A model generated the notes under the pieces. It was not told the origin of the DNA, ran no database searches, and saw nothing but the letters and a program-made list of their open reading frames with translations. From Candidatus Uhrbacteria bacterium (GTDB taxonomy: Bacteria; Patescibacteriota; Patescibacteriia; JACPHY01): a DNA stretch of 64,000 bases. The stretch spans positions 23,219 to 87,218 of the forward strand of contig JACPHY010000011.1 in the NCBI GenBank assembly GCA_016188355.1, read 5' to 3'. The position numbers and the translations under genes are program-made. Every line of letters begins with the position of its first letter. Positions within the stretch are counted from its first letter, which is position 1. This document shows, piece by piece, positions 2,639 to 58,818 of this stretch.

Positions 2639-4849
2639 CTATTTTCGGACTACCTGCGTTGCCTCCTCGAGTCGAAGGCTCAGGAGTTTGGATGCACCTT
2701 CGTCGCCCATGGTCACGCCGTAGATCATGGATGCGCGCTCCATGGAGGAGCGGTTATGGGTGACCACGAGGAATTGGGTGTGCTGGGAGAGATCTTTGAG
2801 AATCTCCGCATAGCGGACGGAGTTTGATTCATCGAGCGCCGCATCGACCTCATCGAGTACCACGAACGGAGATGCGCTGGAGGAGATGATCGCGCAGAGG
2901 AGCGCGATGGCAGTGAGGGCGCGCTCGCCGCCGGAGAGCATGGCGATATGCTTAATGCGTTTTCCGGGTGGCGTCGCTTGGATGTCGATGCCTACCACCA
3001 CGCGCTCGCCGCGCTTCGGGGGTACGTCGGAGGGGGGGATGTCGGGAATGGGGGTGCTAGTTTGTTCCGGCGCCGATTCCTCGATGGGCTCCTCACGGAG
3101 GAGGGTGAGTTTTGCATTGCCGCCACCGAAGAGCTGGCGGAAGTACTTTTCAAAATGCGTATTGATCGTGGCGAATGCGGAATGGAATGCGCGATCAATA
3201 TCGAGCTCCAGTTCGGTGATGACCTGTTCGAGCGACGTGGCGGATTTTTGGAGGTCGTCGGTTTGCTGGGTGAGGAATGCGACGCGTTCCTCGAGTTCGC
3301 GATATTCCGCGAGCGTCTGCTCATCGAGCGTACCAATGGTTGCGAGTTCCCGCTGGAGGCGACCAATGCGGAATTCCGTATCCGTCTCCAGCGGGCCCTG
3401 CGGCGCGGGAAGCGTGCTCGGGTCCTCGGTGCTCGGGATATCGCGCAGGATGGCTTGGCGGAGATCCTCGCGGCGCTGCTCGCATCGCGCGAGTTCAATG
3501 CGACCATCATTCGCCCTTGCGGTGGCCTCGTTGAGGAGTAATTGCTGTGCGCGATAGTTGCGTTGCAGTTCGAAGAAGGCGCCTTTCTTCTGCTGTTCTT
3601 CTGCGTGCACCGCGGACATGCGGCGCTGCACTTCGGTTACTTCGCGTTCCACCTCCCGCAGGGCGGCCTCCGTTTCGGTGAGTTCTGGGGCCGGCGTCCG
3701 TACGTCGGGTGGGGTGCAACGCGTGCGGAGATTTGTGATGCGCTGGTGAATGGTGGTGAGCACCGCGAGGGTGGCGGGCACATCAATGGTGGGAGTTTCG
3801 CGGAGCGAATAGAGGAGCATGTCGATATCCTGGAGTGCGATATCGAGATCCGCGATGAGCGCGGTCGCCGGAAGCGCTTGATGTGCGCCGGCGCGTGTTT
3901 GCGCGGCGTTGCGGAGGAGGAGCATGCGCTCGCGGAGTTCCTGCCGTCGGTGCATGAGCGCTTCGTACGATCGTTGGAGATCGAGAAACGCGTCGCTTTT
4001 TTGTTCCTCCTGCTCCAGCGTCGAGAGCTTGCCCTGGATCTGGTCTACACTCGTTTGGAGTTTACGGCGTTCTGCATCGTGCACTTCCCATGCGGTGCGT
4101 TGCCGTTCCATGAGCCGTGCGAGTTCATGCCAGCGCTGTCCGTGAAATTGTGCGAGCCGTTCGCGGAGCTCTTGTTCGAGTGCATCTCGTTGCTCGAGAC
4201 GTTTCACCTGACGACTCAAGCTGCGGAGTCGCGGGGTGAGTTCCGCGAGGAGCGTTTCGCCCTGGCGGAGGTTCTCGTGCGCGCGCTCGAGTTTGGCGAT
4301 TGCCTGGTTGCGTTTGATTTCCGCTGGTCGGATGCCCGCTGCCTCATCGAAGAACGCCTTGCGATCCGTGGGCGATGCGAGAATGAACTCATCCACCATG
4401 CCCTGCCCAATAATCGAATACGTGCGCTGCCCGATGCGCGCGCCAGCGAGCAGGAGGAGGATGTCTTCTCGGCGGACCTTGTTGCCATTGAGGAGGTACT
4501 CGGCATCACCGGATCGATACACGCGGCGCGTAATGGCAACCTCGGTATAGTCGATGGGTGCGCTGCGATCTTCGTTGTTGAGGAGGAGGGTGACTTCGGC
4601 AACGCCCAGGCGCGGACGTCTCGGCGTTCCGGCAAAAATGACATCTTCCGAGGTTTTCCCTCGGAGGAGTTTCATGGATTGTTCTCCTAAGACCCAGCGA
4701 ATGGCATCGACGACGCACGATTTCCCAGAACCATTGGGACCGACGATGGCGGTGATCCCACGCGATCCGGCGGTGGGGGGGAGGAACTCGAGATTCGTCG
4801 CGTTGGCGAACGATTTGAATCCATTGAGGTCAATGCGTTGAAGCCACAT
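2639..4849 (-). CDS. smc: SMC-family chromosome segregation ATPase (short form, 736 aa)
   Basis: The N-terminus MWLQRIDLNGFKSF...GPNGSGKSCVVDAIRWVLGEQS matches an SMC Walker A head. A long coiled-coil middle follows. The C-terminus LSGGERALTAIALL...VVLDEVDAALDESN carries the ABC signature and D-loop. No obvious hinge; the length is far below canonical SMC. Confidence 0.8.
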   Translation of the reverse strand: MWLQRIDLNGFKSFANATNLEFLPPTAGSRGITAIVGPNGSGKSCVVDAIRWVLGEQSMKLLRGKTSEDVIFAGTPRRPRLGVAEVTLLLNNEDRSAPIDYTEVAITRRVYRSGDAEYLLNGNKVRREDILLLLAGARIGQRTYSIIGQGMVDEFILASPTDRKAFFDEAAGIRPAEIKRNQAIAKLERAHENLRQGETLLAELTPRLRSLSRQVKRLEQRDALEQELRERLAQFHGQRWHELARLMERQRTAWEVHDAERRKLQTSVDQIQGKLSTLEQEEQKSDAFLDLQRSYEALMHRRQELRERMLLLRNAAQTRAGAHQALPATALIADLDIALQDIDMLLYSLRETPTIDVPATLAVLTTIHQRITNLRTRCTPPDVRTPAPELTETEAALREVEREVTEVQRRMSAVHAEEQQKKGAFFELQRNYRAQQLLLNEATARANDGRIELARCEQRREDLRQAILRDIPSTEDPSTLPAPQGPLETDTEFRIGRLQRELATIGTLDEQTLAEYRELEERVAFLTQQTDDLQKSATSLEQVITELELDIDRAFHSAFATINTHFEKYFRQLFGGGNAKLTLLREEPIEESAPEQTSTPIPDIPPSDVPPKRGERVVVGIDIQATPPGKRIKHIAMLSGGERALTAIALLCAIISSSASPFVVLDEVDAALDESNSVRYAEILKDLSQHTQFLVVTHNRSSMERASMIYGVTMGDEGASKLLSLRLEEATQVVRK

Positions 4850-5011
4850 AGCGGGCGGGGCTTGAGCGTGTCATCAGTAGTTCTGCTGCGGCCTCTTCTA
4901 GTGTATCGAGTGTGCGCGGGATTGACACGGGATCGGCGGGGTACTACATTCGATTTGCTGAGAACGATGGTTCCGGCGTGTTCTTTGTGCAACCGCGCAG
5001 CGGAGGAGCAG

Positions 5012-5767
5012 ATGACGATGATACAGCTCTCGGAAGCGATGCAGGAACGGCTCAACAAACTCATGCGACCGGCGGACGATGTCAACAAGGTGACCGTCGC
5101 GCAGGGGTTGCTGCGGGCGATCGGGGACCTTCAGACGAACGAGGAACGCGATGCGGCGTTCGCGTACATCTTCGCGAACTCCAGCTACGCGCCAATCTCT
5201 GGACCGCCGACGCCGGCCGAGGAGTACCCGAAGCCATTCGATGTCTCGCCGGATGGACCGGATCAGCGGGCACTCACCCGTGCGGTGGCCGAACACCGCA
5301 TCGATGCCCGTCTGCGTGCGCTCGAGGCGAACTGCGAGGCGGACGGCGCGAATCCCGAGGTGCGCGCGCAGCGCGCGCGGGCATTCGTGATGGATGGTGA
5401 CCTGCCGATCGTTGCGCGGGCTGCGGTGCTCGGATATCTCATCAATTCCGACGCGTTCGCGAATTCGGTGGACTGTCCGAAGGACATTCCGAACGACGAG
5501 CCGGTATCGAAGGACGCGGCCCAAGCGATCGTCTGGAAGCACCGGGGCGTCCTGCGGAGGGTCTTCGGCACGAAAAAGGTCGTCAAGACGCGTCACGCGC
5601 TCGCCGCGTGCATCGATGAAGAGGTGGGTGACATTCCGGATCCGCACGAGCGCGCGATCGTGCTCTCCCACGTGATGTACGAGTGCGGACAGTGTGCCGC
5701 GCGCGAGCACATCCGTTCGATGGTGGATGGCGCGATGCTGCTCGCTGCGGTGCTGCGCGACGACTAG
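5012..5767 (+). CDS. hypothetical protein
   Basis: ORF with a GGAGG Shine-Dalgarno sequence before the ATG (MTMIQLSEAMQ...). No recognised domain. Confidence 0.5.
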   Translation: MTMIQLSEAMQERLNKLMRPADDVNKVTVAQGLLRAIGDLQTNEERDAAFAYIFANSSYAPISGPPTPAEEYPKPFDVSPDGPDQRALTRAVAEHRIDARLRALEANCEADGANPEVRAQRARAFVMDGDLPIVARAAVLGYLINSDAFANSVDCPKDIPNDEPVSKDAAQAIVWKHRGVLRRVFGTKKVVKTRHALAACIDEEVGDIPDPHERAIVLSHVMYECGQCAAREHIRSMVDGAMLLAAVLRDD

Positions 5768-14340: not shown

Positions 14341-14366
14341 TGTGGCGATCAGCCGTTGTCCCAAAC

Positions 14367-14398
14367 AAATGAGATTCCTCGCGCGAGGAATCTCATTT
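14367..14398 (-). terminator. terminator hairpin for the minus-strand tRNA-Glu + trailer transcript
   Basis: Perfect 13-bp stem aaatgagattcctc-gcgc-gaggaatctcattt followed on the minus strand by TTTGTTTGGG. Confidence 0.6.
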
Positions 14399-14399
14399 G

Positions 14400-14587
14400 G
14401 TATTGCTTGTGGACTCCATCCGAACCCGAGCGCAGCGACCGGAGTATGTGGGGAAGAAGGACTTGCCCCGCGAAGCTCCGCAAGGAGCGAAGTGGGGGCT
14501 TTGCCCGACCCCACATACGGAGGGAGCAAGCGACTTGGTTGGAGGGAAGGGGGTACGGGAGGGAAACCGGGAGGTTTCCCCACGATC
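14400..14587 (-). ncRNA. conserved tRNA 3'-trailer element (copy 1 of 3), co-oriented with tRNA-Glu
   Basis: Shares boxes GTCGCTTGCTCCCTCCGTATGTGGGGTCGGGCAAAGCCC, CCTCACATACTCCGGTCGCTGCGCTCGG and CCCCCACTTCGCTCCTTGCGGAGCTTCGCGGGGCAAG with elements after tRNA-Lys and tRNA-Arg. Internal 10-bp hairpin gtatgtgggg / ccccacatac. Confidence 0.5.
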
Positions 14588-14665
14588 TGGTAGCCCCAAC
14601 GGGATTTGAACCCGTGTCCCCGCCTTGAAGGGGCGGTGTCCTAGACCAGGCTAGACGATGGGGCC
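14588..14665 (-). tRNA. tRNA-Glu (anticodon TTC), CCA encoded
   Basis: The reverse complement GGCCCCATCGTCTAGCCTGGTCTAGGACACCGCCCCTTCAAGGCGGGGACACGGGTTCAAATCCCGTTGGGGCTACCA folds as a cloverleaf with a 7-bp acceptor stem, CCGCC/GGCGG anticodon stem, loop CCTTCAA and a GGTTCAAATCC T-arm. Close to E. coli tRNA-Glu. Confidence 0.85.
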
Positions 14666-27757: not shown

Positions 27758-27956
27758 TATTGGTGGTGCTCGTCGTTACGTATGTGCGGCGTCGCGGTGG
27801 GACCGCCCGTGGCGTCGGTGTGCTTGCAGCGAAGGAAACCGCCGCAAGCGGCTGGCCGAATCATCGCTCCTTTCCGCAGAGTTGTTAATGGTTCCCCGAA
27901 TCGGTACCATATGAGTATTCGCGGGGCATCGCCCCGCGGCTTGTAATGGTTATCGC

Positions 27957-28003
27957 TCGAACATCACGTCCCTGGAACGAAAGCGATTTTCGCAGAGGTC
28001 TCT
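27957..28003 (+). repeat. partial copy of the MITE-like element (right arm), directly upstream of the MBL hydrolase ATG
   Basis: CGCTCGAACATCACGTCCCTGGAACGAAAGCGATTTTCGCAGAGGTCTC is about 90% identical to 36137..36181. Confidence 0.6.
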
Positions 28004-28615
28004 ATGCTCATCGCATATCACGGAGATGCGTGTATTCGGTTGACCGGGAAGCACGATGCGGGGGAATTTGCGGTGCTCCTCGATCCGTATGACGTGAAGG
28101 TGACTGGATTGAAACCGATTCGTCCCTCCGCGGTGCATCTCGTGTGCGCAACGGCGGGTACACTGCCCGAATTCGGGGAGGGTCCGTTTGTGGTGCGCGG
28201 GCCGGGGGAATATGAGGTACATGGGGTATCGGTGACCGGATTCCCGGCTGGCGCGACCACGATCTATCGGATCGCAGCGGAAGGACTTTCGATTGGCCAT
28301 CTCGGCAACTGCGCGGTGCCATTGGACGCCGCGATGATTGAGCGGCTCGGGGAAGTGGATGTGCTCACGGTTCCGGTGGGCGGGAACGGCGTCCTGAATG
28401 CGAAGCAGGCATCGGCAGTGATCGAGCAGGTGGAGCCGCGGCTCGTCATTCCGATCCAATATCGCGCTCCCGGGCTGTCATTGCCGTACGAGAGTATTGA
28501 CGCGTTTTGCAAGGAGATGGGGTGCTCGGCAAAATCTCCAGAGGAAAAGCTCCGCGTGGTGAAGAAAGAGCTCCCGACGGACGAGATGTGGGTTCGGGTG
28601 CTCGCGGTTGATTGA
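28004..28615 (+). CDS. MBL-fold metallo-hydrolase (UPF0173-like)
   Basis: About 200 aa. The pattern MLIAYHGDACIRL...DVLTVPVGGN is typical of the short MBL-fold hydrolase family. Confidence 0.6.
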   Translation: MLIAYHGDACIRLTGKHDAGEFAVLLDPYDVKVTGLKPIRPSAVHLVCATAGTLPEFGEGPFVVRGPGEYEVHGVSVTGFPAGATTIYRIAAEGLSIGHLGNCAVPLDAAMIERLGEVDVLTVPVGGNGVLNAKQASAVIEQVEPRLVIPIQYRAPGLSLPYESIDAFCKEMGCSAKSPEEKLRVVKKELPTDEMWVRVLAVD

Positions 28616-31505: not shown

Positions 31506-31539
31506 CCCCGCTTGGTGCGCATCTTTCTTCTGCTCGATA

Positions 31540-32720
31540 TCCTGCCTTGCCTCTGCTCGCTGCCCCGTCCTGCCTCTGCTTGCCATTCTTTCTGTCCCGC
31601 GATCGCCACCCCGTCTTTCTCCTGTTCGCCATCCTGCCTTTATTCTGCTCGCCATCCCGTCTTTCTTCTGCTCACCATCCTGTCTTTCCTCTGTTCGCCA
31701 TCCTGAGCGAAGCGAAGGATCTCACCCCACAGCACACGCAAACAAAAGAGCATCACGATATTGGCGGGAGAGATCCTTCGGCTTCGCCTCAGGATGGCGA
31801 GATGATGATGTGCAATGCGATCGAGCTCGGCATCGTTCCCGTTTTTGCTCGCGATCTTGTCCTTCCCCTGCTCGCCATCCCGTCTTTCTTCTGCTCGCCG
31901 TCTTGCCATATCCCCCCTTCACCATCCTGTCTTTCCTCTGCTCACCATCCTGTCTTTCCCCTGCTCACCATCCTGTCTTTCCCCTGTTCGCCATCCTGAG
32001 CGAAGCGAAGGATCTCACATGATGGCCTCGCCATGGCATATGACGGATCGTGCGTACTACGTCTACATGCTCACCAATGCGGCGCGGACGGTGCTCTATA
32101 TTGGTATGACCAATGATCTCGTGCGTCGTATCCACGAACATCGCATGGGAACGGTCGACGGATTCACGAAAAAGTATCGTTGCGATCGTCTTGTGTATTA
32201 CGAGCAGTACACGACCGCATACGAGGCGCTCGCTCGGGAGAAGGCGCTGAAGGGGTGGACGAGAAAACGAAAATTGGACCTGGTACAAGAGACCAATGCG
32301 ACATTACGAGATCTTTGGGAGGAGATTATTCGGTGACCGTGATACTACCCTTCGCCATCCTGAGGCAAGGCCGAAGGATCTCACGGAATGATACGTGCAA
32401 ACGCCGGAACATCGTAGTTCCCATGGGTGAGATCCTTCGCTTCGCTCAGGATGGCGAAGGGGGTGATGTGGCGGGATGGCGGAAGGGAATGGTGTGGCAG
32501 GGTGACGAAGGGGGGTAGTATGGCAGGATGGCGGGGAGGGTGATGTGGCGGCATGGCGAAATGGGATGATGTGACGTGGAGCGGTGATCCCGTACTGCCG
32601 TCGACTCTCTGCATGTCCTCCATACTTTTGTTCGCCATCCTGTCTTTCTTCTGCTCGCCATCCTGAGCGAAGCGAAGGATCTCACATCACAGCCTCACCG
32701 TGACATATGCCGGATCGTGC
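31540..32720. repeat. repeat-dense region: spacer-less 23-nt tandem repeats (TCGCCATCCYGTCTTTCYTCTGY) plus a 30-nt terminal unit CGCCATCCTGAGCGAAGCGAAGGATCTCAC in direct and inverted copies
   Basis: Three tandem arrays at about 31598-31725, 31868-32018 and 32626-32686. Two long inverted-repeat pairs of the 30-nt unit at about 31696/31770 and 32350/32425. The intact GIY-YIG ORF and its truncated duplicate each start immediately after a terminal unit. Confidence 0.8.
32019..32336 (+). CDS. GIY-YIG nuclease family protein (about 105 aa)
   Basis: YYVYMLTN...LYIGMTNDLVRRIHEHRMG matches the GIY...YIG motif of COG2827-type small nucleases. Confidence 0.85.
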   Translation: MMASPWHMTDRAYYVYMLTNAARTVLYIGMTNDLVRRIHEHRMGTVDGFTKKYRCDRLVYYEQYTTAYEALAREKALKGWTRKRKLDLVQETNATLRDLWEEIIR

Positions 32721-35441: not shown

Positions 35442-36011
35442 ATGGCCAACCGCCACCTCCTCCGCACTGTTGCCATGCAGTCCCTGTTTCAGTGGGATTT
35501 CAATGGTCGACCCGAGGGCGCGCTTCCGGCGATGGTGACGGAGAATGTGAAGGAATTTGCACCTGGTATCGATGACGTGGCCTTCGCATTTGAGGTGACG
35601 AAGGGCGTGGCGGAGCACCTGGAACCGATTGATGCGCTGATCCAGCAGTGGGCGCCTCATTGGCCGTTGGAGCAGATCACGAATGTGGACCGGAGCGTCA
35701 TTCGTCTCGGCATTTTCGAGCTCAAGTATGCCGGCGGCGGCGTTCCCCCGAAGGTGGCTATCAATGAGGCGATCGAGCTGGCGAAGACCTTCGGCGGAGA
35801 TGCGTCCGGCCGATTCGTGAATGGCGTACTGGGCGCGATTTATAAGGACATGCTCGATAAGGGCGAGGTGACGGAACCGCCGGCGGAAGAACAGGGGACG
35901 GAAGAGCGCGGGGAGTCTCCGGTGGAGGAGGTGTCGCGAGCAGTGGAGGGGGATAGTGCTGGTGCTGATGTGGTGCCTCCGGAGGAACCCGCGACGGATA
36001 CCACAGCGTAA
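35442..36011 (+). CDS. nusB: transcription antitermination factor NusB (with acidic C-terminal extension)
   Basis: NusB-type N-terminal helices [17 protein letters not shown]...RLGIFELKY...[13 protein letters not shown]. Confidence 0.8.
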
Positions 36012-36014
36012 TGT

Positions 36015-36181
36015 AAGAGACCTCTGCAAAAATCCAGATTCGCGCCAGGAACGCGCTGTTCGGCTGCGCTGCGTTCCTCGACCGCTCACGAGATCCGCTG
36101 GATATCGCTCGGGTCTGCGTCGCGCAGCTCGCTCGAACATCACGTCCCTGGCGCGAAAGCGATTTTTGCAGAGGTCTCGTA
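36015..36181. mobile_element. MITE-like element with 17-bp perfect terminal inverted repeats (GAGACCTCTGCAAAAAT / ATTTTTGCAGAGGTCTC)
   Basis: The TIRs flank about 130 bp between nusB and rnc. The right arm is duplicated at 27957..28003. Confidence 0.55.
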
Positions 36182-36261
36182 ATTCTCACGTGCATGGCGG
36201 ATAGTGAATGCGGAATTCGTGGTGACGACATTCCGTATTCACTCTTCGTCATCCTTGGTGC

Positions 36262-36951
36262 ATGACCGATCTCAGTGGATTGGAGCAGCAGTTGGGTGCG
36301 ACGTTTGAAAATCGCGACTTACTCCTGCAGGCGCTCACGCATCGCTCATATCTCAATGAGCATCCGAATTTTCCCTTGGGGCACAATGAGCGTCTCGAGT
36401 TTCTCGGCGACGCGGTGATCGAGTTGGTCGTCACGGAATATCTCTACCGCAATTACGACAACCCCGAAGGGGAGCTGACGAATTGGCGCGCGAGTCTCGT
36501 GAATGCGAAGATGCTTTCGGAAGTTGCTCGGGAATTGGGCGTCGAGCCGTATCTCCTCCTCTCCCGAGGCGAGGCAAAGGAAACGGGAAAGGCACGGCAG
36601 TACATTCTTGCGAATGCATGCGAGTCGGTCGTCGGTGCACTCTACCTCGATCAGGGCATGCGCAAGGCGAAAGCTTTCTTGAGCCGCGTGCTCTTGCCGC
36701 GATTGCCGCACATTCTCGCGAATCACCTGTACATCGATGCAAAGTCACGGTTTCAGGAGATTGCGCAGGAACGATTGGGCATCACGCCGAACTACAAGGT
36801 GCTCGAGGAGGTTGGTCCGGATCATGCAAAGCGATTCACGGTCGGCATCTTCCTGGGCCGCGATCTCGTGGCGAGCGGCGGGGGATCATCCAAGCAGGAG
36901 GCGCAGATGGATGCCGCAGAAAATGCACTCAAGGCGAAGGGGTGGGTGTAG
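36262..36951 (+). CDS. rnc: ribonuclease III
   Basis: RNase III signature ERLEFLGDAVIELVVTEYLY, catalytic E/D residues, and a C-terminal dsRBD (KQEAQMDAAENALKA). Confidence 0.95.
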   Translation: MTDLSGLEQQLGATFENRDLLLQALTHRSYLNEHPNFPLGHNERLEFLGDAVIELVVTEYLYRNYDNPEGELTNWRASLVNAKMLSEVARELGVEPYLLLSRGEAKETGKARQYILANACESVVGALYLDQGMRKAKAFLSRVLLPRLPHILANHLYIDAKSRFQEIAQERLGITPNYKVLEEVGPDHAKRFTVGIFLGRDLVASGGGSSKQEAQMDAAENALKAKGWV

Positions 36952-37046: not shown

Positions 37047-37335
37047 AATACAGCATAGGCAAACCTCCCCCACTCCGCTCCTGAGCGGAGCTTCGCGGGG
37101 CAAGCCGGTTTTCCTATGGACCCTTTCCCTTCTGCCGGTCGAAACGACCATGCGGTCGCTTGCCTGCGGGCGCATTCGGGGTCGGCATGAAAGCTGGTGT
37201 CCGGCACCATCCCGAGTCCGCGAGGGACCTCACACCACACATGGGGCATGTGAGATCTCTCGTCGCCCAGCGCTCCTCGAGACGACACAAGGGTCGGCCT
37301 GTCTTCTTTCCCGAACGCGTCCTCGGCGGCACTCG
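37047..37335 (+). ncRNA. conserved tRNA 3'-trailer element (copy 2 of 3), after tRNA-Arg
   Basis: Contains box CCCCCACTCCGCTCCTGAGCGGAGCTTCGCGGGGCAAG (shared with the Glu copy), CGGTCGAAACGACCATGCGGTCGCTTGC (shared with the Lys copy), and GGGGTCGGCATGAAAGC plus CCTCACA...CGTCGCCCAGCGCTCC related to the other copies. Confidence 0.45.
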
Positions 37336-38447: not shown

Positions 38448-38523
38448 GGGTCGCTAGCTCAACTGGTAGAGCAAATCCCTCTTAAGGATAAGGTTCCGGG
38501 TTCGAGCCCCGGGCGACCCACCA
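38448..38523 (+). tRNA. tRNA-Lys (anticodon CTT), CCA encoded
   Basis: GGGTCGCTAGCTCAACTGGTAGAGCAAATCCCTCTTAAGGATAAGGTTCCGGGTTCGAGCCCCGGGCGACCCACCA is close to bacterial tRNA-Lys. Anticodon loop CTCTTAA. Confidence 0.85.
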
Positions 38524-38700
38524 GAATCACGGGACGAACCTCCCGGTTCGCCTGTGGGCCCACTCCCTCCTTTCGGTCGAATCAGCCATTCGGTCGCTTG
38601 CTCCCTCCGTATGTGGGGTCGGGCAAAGCCCTTCTTCCTCACATACTCCGGTCGCTGCGCTCGGATCAGGATGGAGTCCGCGGGGCGCACCAAAAAATGA
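38524..38700 (+). ncRNA. conserved tRNA 3'-trailer element (copy 3 of 3), after tRNA-Lys
   Basis: CGGTCGAATCAGCCATTCGGTCGCTTGCTCCCTCCGTATGTGGGGTCGGGCAAAGCCCTTCTTCCTCACATACTCCGGTCGCTGCGCTCGG. Hairpin gtatgtgggg/cctcacatac. Near-identical boxes to the Glu copy in the same orientation relative to the tRNA. Confidence 0.5.
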
Positions 38701-38711
38701 ACTTTGCATAC

Positions 38712-38745
38712 AAAACACCCGGGCATTGCCCGGGTGTTTTGTATG
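38712..38745. terminator. bidirectional terminator hairpin between the tRNA-Lys unit and hup
   Basis: aaaacacccgggc-attg-cccgggtgtttt perfect stem with T-runs on both strands. Confidence 0.7.
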
Positions 38746-56651: not shown

Positions 56652-57710
56652 ATGTCGATGTTGGTGCTGGATCCGAAGATCACCCGACTTCCTGCTGTGA
56701 CGCAGACGAATGCATGGTATTCCGTCGTATGGTCCCCATCTGGCGCGTACGTGGCTGGGGTACAGGATATGAAGATCATTTCGTGTTGGCGTGGTGATGG
56801 GTCGCTGCTTTGGACGCAGGACTACTCGCGTGAGAGTGTACAGGATTGTGTATTCGCAGGCGACGACACGCTCTATGTGCGGTCCATCGGTTACTTCAGG
56901 GATGGCACACGTCGCGTGCGTATTCGGAGGTGCATGGTGCCGGATCGGCGTGGCCGCAATGCGATGGTGTGTTCCCGTCCGGTGTCTCGGCTGGGGTCCA
57001 TGGCGGCTACTAGGGATGGCGCCCTCCTTTATGCGGAGTGGTTGGGCAGTGGTCTTTCATGGCATCGGTACTCGCAATCATGCTCCCATCCGCACCAGTC
57101 GGTGATACGGGAGATTGCCTCCTGTGCGGATACGTTGCACTTCTCACGTGATGGGCGTTGGTTGTGGGAGGTGCAGCAGTCGAGCATCCAGGTAACGTGC
57201 ATGGTGACCAATGATACGGCGTGCGTCGCAAATTGTGGTGCTTCCATATTGGCGGTAGACGTTGCAGACGAGAGTCACCGTATTGCGGTGGTGCACCGAA
57301 ATGGACGTATTGCGGTCTTTGCGCATGAGCGAGATCCCCGTAACGGTGTGCTTCGAGTGGTGCGCGACCGTCCGGATCGGCGTTGGTGTCGGTCGATGCG
57401 GCATGCGGCAGTGATTTGGGGACCCGGTGATCATCTCTTCTTGTTGATTGGGCAAGAGCATCGCCTGTTGCTCGTTGACGCGGATGCCCCGGACGAACTT
57501 ACGGTCATGGCGGAAATACCGCAGGTGCGGCAGGTGGCGACGATCTCCCCTGATCCGCACGCGCGTCGGGTGTTCGTGCTCGGCTCGCTCTCCACACCGT
57601 CCGCATCGCGTCGCCGCGAATACGACTATGGTTCCGCGCTCCTCGATTTTGGTTCCCCCTACCTCGGCCTCGTTGCGCCCGTGCACTGGGCGGATGCATC
57701 GTTTGGGTAG
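56652..57710 (+). CDS. WD40-like beta-propeller paralog 5; C-terminus ...LDFGSPYLGLVAPVHWADASFG
   Basis: YSVVWSPSGAYVAG..., ISPDPHARRVFVLG. Confidence 0.7.
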   Translation: MSMLVLDPKITRLPAVTQTNAWYSVVWSPSGAYVAGVQDMKIISCWRGDGSLLWTQDYSRESVQDCVFAGDDTLYVRSIGYFRDGTRRVRIRRCMVPDRRGRNAMVCSRPVSRLGSMAATRDGALLYAEWLGSGLSWHRYSQSCSHPHQSVIREIASCADTLHFSRDGRWLWEVQQSSIQVTCMVTNDTACVANCGASILAVDVADESHRIAVVHRNGRIAVFAHERDPRNGVLRVVRDRPDRRWCRSMRHAAVIWGPGDHLFLLIGQEHRLLLVDADAPDELTVMAEIPQVRQVATISPDPHARRVFVLGSLSTPSASRRREYDYGSALLDFGSPYLGLVAPVHWADASFG

Positions 57711-57714
57711 CGCG

Positions 57715-57816
57715 ATTTGGTCCCATCCCCGGATGGGACTTCCCCCGCGGTGATCTTGCGGAAGATCGTTGCGGGGGAGGAATGTGGTATTGGTTCTTTC
57801 CCAAAGGAGGCGTGTC
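57715..57816 (+). promoter_or_regulatory. conserved leader L6 upstream of paralog 6
   Basis: TTGGTCCCATCCCCGGATGGGACTTCCCCCGCGGTGATCTTGCGGAAGATCGTTGCGGGGGAGGAATG...GGTTCTTTCCCAAAGGAGG..ATG. A-T to C-G covariation in the second hairpin. Confidence 0.6.
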
Positions 57817-58818
57817 ATGTCGAATGGATCGGCGGAACGTGGAAATTTGATTTCGGATCCGCGAGTCGTGCTCCTGTCCGGACCGGATCAGCGGGCGGAT
57901 AGTTGTGCGTGGTCTCCCTCGGGAAATCTCGGGGCGACCGTGCACGGGGGTACGTGTGTGTTGTGGGATCTCCATACGGGAGCAGCGACGGTGCGCTGTG
58001 CGACCGGTCGGCTGGTGCGCGACATTGCGTTTGATGGATCGGGTAGACGGATCATGGTCCTGGATGATCACAGCGTTTCTGCGTGGAGCGGTGAACGGGG
58101 AAACTACGAGGGCGTTGTGGTGCTCGCGAATGGATACCAGATGCTCTCCATTGGTGGCTATTATTTGGCTGCGTGGCAACCGGATCGCTGCCTGCTCCAG
58201 CCAATGCGAAGGGACGTGCTCGATCCCATCGAATTTCAGGAGCGGTGGAAGGCGGTAGTGCTCTCCGCGGATGGGTTGCTGACCTGGTTTCTTTGGTCGG
58301 ATGGTGTGGTGGCTGCGCATACGGGAGCGGGATCGGCACATCGTATCGCTGAATTTCCATTGGTCTGTGAGGGCCGTGATCGATCCATTGTCTGTGCGCT
58401 ACAGGGTCGGAGGGCGGTGGTGTGCTGTGGGGGGCATGTGCACGTGTTCGATTGCGATGCGCCGGAGCGTCAACGCGAGCGTATGTGGGCATTGACGGAT
58501 CCCATTCATGCAGCGACGTGGCTTTGGGGAGGACGAGCCCTACTGCTGGCGCATGGTGCATCGCGCGATGCGAGTCGGCTGTGCGGTATCGACGTGGCAA
58601 CTGGTTTTCCGTTTTGGCGCTCGTCGGCCCATACCTTGCAGCAGGTGACGGCATTTGCGTCCGCACCGGATGGCCATCGCGTGCTCTTGAATGCAGCATT
58701 GGTGACGCCGTTCTCGGCATCGGATGCGGAACGTTTTGGCGCGACGGTACTCGACTTCGGTGACCCGCCCTCGTCTTTGGGTGGTTCACTGCATTGGTCG
58801 GACGCGTCGTTTGGGTGA
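57817..58818 (+). CDS. WD40-like beta-propeller paralog 6; C-terminus ...LDFGDPPSSLGGSLHWSDASFG
   Basis: CAWSPSGNLGATVHGGTCVLWDLHTG..., ASAPDGHRVLLNAA. Confidence 0.7.
   Translation: MSNGSAERGNLISDPRVVLLSGPDQRADSCAWSPSGNLGATVHGGTCVLWDLHTGAATVRCATGRLVRDIAFDGSGRRIMVLDDHSVSAWSGERGNYEGVVVLANGYQMLSIGGYYLAAWQPDRCLLQPMRRDVLDPIEFQERWKAVVLSADGLLTWFLWSDGVVAAHTGAGSAHRIAEFPLVCEGRDRSIVCALQGRRAVVCCGGHVHVFDCDAPERQRERMWALTDPIHAATWLWGGRALLLAHGASRDASRLCGIDVATGFPFWRSSAHTLQQVTAFASAPDGHRVLLNAALVTPFSASDAERFGATVLDFGDPPSSLGGSLHWSDASFG

Follow-up and report, generated by a model that had tools for sequence, protein, structure and literature searches.

A 64-kb stretch of Candidatus Uhrbacteria DNA (64,000 nucleotides, here called the window, whose numbering is used throughout) has in its nusB-rnc spacer an element of 162 bp whose terminal inverted repeats are perfect over 18 bp; it is very probably a non-autonomous MITE derived from, and mobilised in trans by, a DDE transposase of the IS5 family. 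A miniature transposable element had been one of the options of the original prediction, and it is upheld by the terminal inverted repeats, a 4-bp direct repeat, the lack of a coding role, an empty site in the closest relative, ends of IS5-family type, and the target duplications found across the family. We infer mobilisation in trans, and likewise current activity and any effect on expression. The element and its surroundings are made up as follows.

35442-36011, plus strand: nusB, the upstream neighbour (Pfam NusB, 7e-32), whose stop codon precedes the element by 5 nt
36013-36016, no strand: direct repeat GTAA, left copy, a putative target-site duplication (read directly from the sequence)
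36017-36178, no strand: probable complete MITE, a non-coding imperfect long palindrome (from its fold and its absence from the nearest relative, locus L124)
36017-36034, plus strand: left terminal inverted repeat GAGACCTCTGCAAAAATC
36161-36178, plus strand: right terminal inverted repeat GATTTTTGCAGAGGTCTC, perfectly complementary to the left one
36179-36182, no strand: direct repeat GTAA, right copy (read directly from the sequence)
36262-36951, plus strand: rnc, encoding RNase III, the downstream neighbour (Pfam Ribonucleas_3_3 and dsrm), which starts 83 nt past the element

The inverted repeat had been correctly recognised, but as part of a 167-bp element with 17-bp repeats, into which flanking bases had been drawn; the arms are 18 nt long, enclose 126 nt, and reach 21 nt if one mismatch is allowed. 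With up to three mismatches, the 17-mer occurs three times in the window, versus 0.05 expected. The genes named as neighbours (nusB, rnc and, for a second copy described below, an MBL hydrolase gene) are all borne out by Pfam, and a Candidatus Uhrbacteria (CPR/Patescibacteria) protein at NCBI matches the RNase III of the window at 100% identity. The check proposed for target-site duplications turned up the 4-bp GTAA on both sides of the element.

A second pair of arms (36039-36073 and 36123-36157, 80% complementary) continues the first, such that the whole 162 bp is predicted to form one hairpin of 62 pairs at about -93 to -94 kcal/mol (shuffled sequences, -62 +/- 4; z = -8.3), the stem of which comprises an 18-bp perfect helix and then an 11-bp helix. 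The "internal palindrome" CGAAAGCGATTTTCG to which attention had been drawn is merely a 5-bp stem with a 5-nt loop, perfect in the partial copy only; the full copy reads ...TTTTTG. The only open reading frames that run across 36017-36178 are long ones, judged spurious, which overlap nusB on one strand or the other, and no coding role for the element was found among them.

The family to which the element belongs can be read from its ends. Genomes, one per species, were scanned for exact matches to GATTTTYGCAGAGGTCTC, and at least 116 loci were listed. One of these, in a Verrucomicrobiae MAG (L027), contains a 1193-bp insertion sequence (4336-5528) that has the same 18-mer at both ends (1 and 0 mismatches relative to the scan consensus GAGACCTCTGCGAAAATC); its 322-aa transposase has DUF772 and DDE_Tnp_1 domains, reaches 241.7 bits against the NCBIfam model NF033581 (IS5 family transposase; cutoff 140), and has plasmid homologues annotated as members of the IS5 family. 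Transposases 54-55% identical to that of L027 are encoded by two other insertion sequences of about 1157 bp (16 loci taken, L131-138 and L139-146), whose ends are GAGACCTCTGCAAAAC... and ...TTTTGCAGAGGTCTC. Perfect 5-bp target duplications flank these insertion sequences at six distinct sites (TACTT, GGGGT, GACTA, AAGTA, AATTT and GATAT), and the L131 insertion sequence has a further one, CGTCT. The window's left repeat agrees fully over its first 15 nt with the left ends of the IS5-family insertion sequences in L131-L146, and departs at 3 of 18 positions from that of the L027 insertion sequence. Thus, the inverted repeat in the window is the conserved end of a subgroup of the IS5 family. The transposase-bearing insertion sequences with these termini (L027, L131-138 and L139-146) are all from Verrucomicrobiota, with none found so far in Uhrbacteria.

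The same ends also bound many short elements. At least 50 short inverted pairs, 74-372 bp apart with a mode of 128-131 bp, were found among the matches listed; those listed come from about 20 genomes of at least five phyla, with hosts that include Thermodesulfobacteriota, Sphingomonas, Bacteroidota, Verrucomicrobiota and two Uhrbacteria MAGs. Many Thermodesulfobacteriota MAGs have such pairs, one of them alone at more than 20 of the loci listed. A perfect 5-bp direct repeat, typically AAGTT or AACTT, flanks 24 of the 50 listed pairs (1 of 50 in a displaced-flank control). Judging from these ends, the short pairs are MITEs of that IS5-family subgroup. Their interiors, among the matches listed, vary between groups, and a BLAST search of the whole element of the window against the at least 116 listed loci returned nothing in common beyond the 18-27-nt end; therefore, the internal sequence is private to the window's own subfamily. 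The other complete Uhrbacteria example among the matches listed (L012) is 129 bp long, folds into a long hairpin and is flanked by TATT on both sides, a 4-bp repeat like GTAA. The duplications of 4 bp in the two Uhrbacteria MITEs, versus 5 bp in the characterised insertion-sequence copies, count against the assignment to this family and are compatible with a different transposase subgroup.

Several other features of these loci were noted. One Desulfobacterales MAG (CAZUBT01; L002, L013, L025, L056, L065, L099, L104 and L106) has many copies of a 192-193-bp MITE that share one 15-nt target, ATACC-AAGTT-CTGTT, of which AAGTT or AACTT is duplicated, a pattern of either strong site preference or repeated insertion into another repeat. 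In the Candidatus Uhrbacteria MAG JACRJU01, a 46-nt minimal hairpin (L088, 1276-1321) consists of two related ends back to back, AAGATCTCTGCAAAAGTCGC aagat GCGACTTTTGCAGAGATCTC, and may be the smallest member of the family. The palindromic motif that also surrounds a GIY-YIG-like ORF in the window (see below), ...TCATCCTGAGCGNAGCGAAGGATCT..., occupies the interior of several MITEs with GAGACCTCTGC ends in other phyla (L003, L023, L085, L098, L105 and L116), and in L005 the motif stands on both sides of a MITE (1304-1329 and 1480-1502); both of the short repeats thus associated are very widespread. The many exact 18-mer matches in Arthrobacter/Specibacter, Marinobacterium and Roseibium/Labrenzia were set aside as chance, each genus having one conserved coding context with no partner repeat, and a Prevotella locus (L001), in which the 18-mer and a partner with 4 mismatches surround an IS1595-type transposase, was treated as coincidental.

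The genomes of relatives were examined for the same gene string. The nearest, GCA_016206015.1, encodes RNase III, NusB and MBL proteins that are 98%, 79% and 87% identical to those of the window, and has the same rpmF-nusB-rnc order with a nusB-rnc spacer of 80 nt that lacks the 162-bp element (L124); it lacks the partial copy also (L129), so that both copies are presence/absence polymorphisms. More distant Uhrbacteria have nusB-rnc spacers of 35 nt and 3 nt. Because the spacers of relatives are short and without the element, the hairpin is not conserved in the nusB-rnc operon, and the 162-bp element is a lineage-specific insertion rather than a conserved nusB-rnc structure, which the original prediction had named as the finding that would speak against a mobile element. 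That the hairpin might be a native regulatory structure of the operon (a processing site, an attenuator or a terminator) was suggested by its position within a conserved gene string, just before the gene for a double-strand-specific RNase, and by its folding far better than shuffled sequence. This explanation is highly improbable and is largely refuted by the empty sites, neither the closest relative nor three more distant ones (spacers of 80, 35 and 3 nt) having the structure; moreover, there is no T run, a scan for intrinsic terminators found none in either copy and none between nusB and rnc, and the ends are common to insertion sequences and MITEs of unrelated phyla. A search of Rfam 15 gave no match at gathering thresholds, the best below threshold being MIR918 (35 bits versus 268), a generic match of long-hairpin miRNA models.

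The spacer of the relative, TAATGAGTTGACGCG, has diverged from that of the window, TAATGTAATTCTCACGTGC, which after removal of the element and one GTAA reads TAATGTAA joined to TTCTCACGTGC. The pre-insertion target and the GTAA duplication are therefore not exactly readable from the empty site, and in this short spacer the target duplication is not checkable, a point against the reading of the element as an IS5-derived MITE.

A separate hairpin of 59 nt (36194-36252, arms of 23 nt) lies just 5' of the rnc start codon, and the 78 nt around it (36185-36262) are predicted to fold at -37 kcal/mol (z = -5.4). The 69 rnc-proximal nucleotides that include this hairpin are 96% identical between the window and the MITE-free GCA_016206015.1, in which it is thus kept; it is missing in the more distant relatives with 35-nt and 3-nt spacers. 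This hairpin is a candidate for a native RNase III autoregulatory stem.

The copy number of the element within the window is low, and this too weighs against its being a MITE of the IS5 family: nothing else in the 64 kb resembles it, leaving one full and one partial copy, and tblastn with an IS5 transposase found no IS5 transposase encoded there. No other copy of the window's subfamily was found among the at least 116 genome loci listed, a scan of JGI metagenomes with a subfamily pattern that matches both arms and the partial copy yielded two unrelated elements only, and a scan of viral contigs for the inverted repeat yielded no match.

Further copies are implied, however, by the way in which the locus was assembled elsewhere. 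In Logan contigs of run SRR12113419, the NusB and RNase III of the window lie on separate contigs, one ending at 36043 and the other starting at 36149. With k = 31, the value that we take Logan assemblies to use, these breaks are exactly k-1 = 30 nt inside a block, 36014-36178, that extends from TAA and the left repeat to the last base of the right repeat. The rule was checked at two other contig ends, the start of L117 at 32658 and the end of L119 at 31720, which are predicted to the base by the exact in-window repeats behind them (32655-32687 and 31691-31727). No other exact 30-mer of the element's ends is present in the window. Since the breaks fall k-1 inside both ends, the block would occur elsewhere in the sample with different flanks, which implies at least one further copy in SRR12113419 outside the window; such a copy could belong to another organism there, and to that extent the breaks count for less in favour of an IS5-derived MITE. 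The boundaries of the block would fit other copies in xTAA targets in which x is not G, that is, a 4-bp duplication and a preference for NTAA reminiscent of the IS5 target, YTAR. An empty-site strain or a flip inversion of the middle was also considered as the cause of the breaks and rejected, as these would place them at 36016 or 36034, not at 36043 and 36149.

The same contigs bear on whether the element might be an artefact of assembly (a fold-back chimera, for example) or an inverted repeat that arose by chance. None of the independent Logan contigs retrieved covers the central 105 nt (36044-36148), as an artefact would allow; against this, an independent assembly agrees with the window at 100% identity across the two junctions, with 27-30 nt of the element at each, the right arm recurs 8 kb away, and the ends match a widespread family of insertion sequences and MITEs. 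The chance expectation for a perfect 18-nt inverted repeat within 200 nt is, by arithmetic, about 2e-4 per 64 kb. An origin by chance or by misassembly is scarcely credible.

The recurrence of the right arm, 8 kb away at the start of an MBL-fold hydrolase gene, had been described as 47 nt long at 27957-28003; it is real, with corrected coordinates of 27953-28002 and a length of 50 nt. Its features are the following.

27946-27956, plus strand: ATGGTTATCGC, a remnant-like upstream copy of the start of the MBL gene, out of frame, with the real start 58 nt downstream
27953-28002, plus strand: partial copy of the element, right arm only, with no left inverted repeat (50 nt, 47/50 or 94% identical)
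27985-28002, plus strand: terminal repeat of the partial copy, GATTTTCGCAGAGGTCTC, with GAGG at 27995-27998, 5 nt before the ATG at 28004
28004-28615, plus strand: the MBL-fold hydrolase gene that the partial copy abuts (Pfam Lactamase_B_3)

The inverted-repeat end at 28002 is followed by a single T and then by the ATG at 28004, which is the conserved start of the gene, because nearly every close MBL homologue (at least 59% identical) is, like the window's protein, 203 aa long, and these homologues cover that protein in full. The partial copy is identical in three samples (sequencing runs). Where the relative (L129) reads ...GCCCCGCGGCTTGTA TGCGCT ATGGTTATCTCG..., the window has, in order, GCTTGTA, ATGGTTATCGC, 46 nt of the MITE right arm ending in GAGGTCTC, T, and ATGCTCATCGC ATATCACGG, such that a near-copy of the gene's first 11 nt stands on either side of the fragment. 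The upstream one, ATGGTTATCGC, matches the start of the gene in the relative, ATGGTTATCTC, at 10 of 11 positions and the real start in the window, ATGCTCATCGC (28004-28014), at 9 of 11. No left arm was found beside the partial copy even with 4 mismatches allowed, and since there is neither a left repeat nor a 4-5-bp duplication, the partial copy is not a canonical insertion. We read the 50-nt fragment as the rearranged remnant of a second, diverged full copy, left by deletion or repair; a TCGC microhomology at its left junction is compatible with this reading.

The terminal repeat might instead have been retained before the MBL start by supplying a promoter or a ribosome-binding site to the adjacent gene, which would explain why the right arm was kept there. 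The GAGG lies 5 nt before the ATG, the native upstream sequence of the relative, GCTTGTATGCGCTATG, has no such motif, and the fragment is the same in all three samples. The GAGG is weak evidence, however, because Shine-Dalgarno-like motifs precede only about 6 of the 37 crude ORF starts in the window, with none at rnc or gyrA, and so are not evidently needed; in the full copy, moreover, the same end is 83 nt from rnc. A scan for sigma-70-like promoters found none in, or reading out of, either copy, and the earlier suggestion of a promoter or 5'UTR donor has thus gained no positive support. Donation of expression signals is improbable, and the fragment is best regarded as a remnant of a MITE.

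The position of the full copy next to rnc raises a further question of function. Because the nusB-rnc spacers of relatives are only 3-80 nt, co-transcription of the two genes is probable, and a read-through transcript would carry an imperfect double-stranded RNA of about 62 pairs contributed by the element. It is plausible that such a transcribed hairpin would be a substrate of the RNase III encoded downstream. The element, a MITE by origin, might then have been co-opted, RNase III cutting the hairpin so as to uncouple the nusB and rnc mRNAs and exert feedback on its own message. The short intergenic distances, the empty terminator scan and the 18-bp perfect helix followed by the 11-bp helix would all suit such a role, and in Neisseria the hairpins of Correia elements (CREE) are substrates that RNase III cuts at the inverted repeats, with possible changes in the expression of neighbouring genes (PMC2649163, PMC10969869). 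Against this, the insertion is recent and confined to a single lineage, and there is therefore no sign of selection; the hairpin at 36194-36252, conserved in the MITE-free relative, could fill the role; and the position beside rnc may be coincidence. Co-option is thus unlikely. Should the adjacent RNase III process the hairpin, the element would illustrate in nature how a MITE can alter the expression of an operon. Rather improbable is the more elaborate proposition that the MITE was captured as a self-targeting device (a feedback loop on RNase III in a reduced-genome CPR bacterium) while the fragment re-wired translation initiation of the MBL gene. As a weaker variant of such speculation, the near-identical 18-bp ends in Uhrbacteria and in Thermodesulfobacteriota and Verrucomicrobiota could reflect transposon traffic between episymbiont and host.

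Other repeats were noted in the window. Between 31520 and 32720, a GIY-YIG-like ORF (about 32022-32336) lies amid 23-nt tandem repeats of TGCTCGCCATCCTGTCTTTCCCC (31522-31705 and 31846-31998), beside an inverse-type 26-nt array (32447-32573), and CGCCATCCTGAGCGAAGCGAAGGATCTCAC occurs five to six times around the ORF, in either orientation. The CGCCATCCTGAGCGAAGCGAAGGATCTCAC motif likewise brackets a GIY-YIG gene in two relatives (L128 and L129), which suggests that gene and motif together form a mobile unit. Repeats and perfect palindromes just downstream of tRNA genes (38593-38745, 14366-14534 and 37067-37104, beside tRNA-Lys 38448-38523, tRNA-Glu 14588-14665 and tRNA-Arg 36974-47) are common to these loci in inverted orientation, and the end of a Logan contig (L118) at 37087 implies a repeat start at about 37058, right after tRNA-Arg. 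Stretches of 80-160 nt with 80-91% identity recur between 50324 and 57782 among consecutive ORFs of ~350-380 aa (50271-58818), which look like a tandem array of paralogous genes.

For the origin of the 162-bp element, the preferred reading remains transposition as an IS5-derived MITE. An IS5-family transposase would recognise the GAGACCTCTGCAAAA... terminal inverted repeats and then cut the element out; the excised element would insert at a staggered cut in the target, and repair of that cut would leave a short direct repeat, here GTAA. The insertion, 5 nt past the nusB stop codon in the rpmF-nusB-rnc string, would have followed the split from the nearest sequenced relative. For annotation, this means that the hairpin is to be entered as an inserted mobile element rather than as a terminator or regulatory RNA of the nusB-rnc operon. 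The two lineage-specific insertions since the split from a relative with a 98% identical RNase III point to recent transposon activity in Candidatus Uhrbacteria (CPR), and the 18-bp end GAGACCTCTGC(A/G)AAAATC offers a signature by which a subgroup of IS5, together with the MITEs derived from it, can be recognised across at least five phyla. A search of the available literature library turned up no prior description of MITEs in Candidatus Uhrbacteria or CPR, nor of these end sequences. An IS5-derived MITE is an ordinary kind of element, newly seen in the Uhrbacteria/CPR lineage, and no new mechanism is suggested.

Among known systems, the element most resembles the IS5 family (NF033581 type) and the MITEs derived from it: three insertion sequences that carry a transposase share GAGACCTCTGCAAAA at their ends without a mismatch over 15-18 nt, the element has a short target duplication, and its mobilisation would occur in trans. 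It differs in having no transposase, in an interior unrelated to those insertion sequences beyond the 18-mer, and in the 4-bp duplication that it shares with L012, where the insertion-sequence copies have 5 bp; IS5 of E. coli itself makes 4-bp duplications. Like CREE of Neisseria, which are intergenic MITEs of roughly 100-160 bp, it has terminal inverted repeats and would form a hairpin in transcripts, but its end sequences are unrelated and its direct repeat is GTAA, with no promoter predicted. CREE duplicate TA and create promoters at their junctions, and neither the characteristic Correia inverted repeat nor a TA duplication was found in the window element. The small, intergenic, hairpin-forming REP/BIME, ERIC and RUP repeats are similar in general form; REPs, however, are not known to have terminal inverted repeats or target duplications, and they are associated with RAYT (IS200-like) proteins, whereas the ends in the window match DDE-type IS5 elements with duplications. 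Finally, the double-stranded stem that the transcript would carry just upstream of rnc recalls the rnc leader of E. coli, which is cut by RNase III in autoregulation; the stem of E. coli is native and conserved, whereas the hairpin in the window is a recent transposon insertion.
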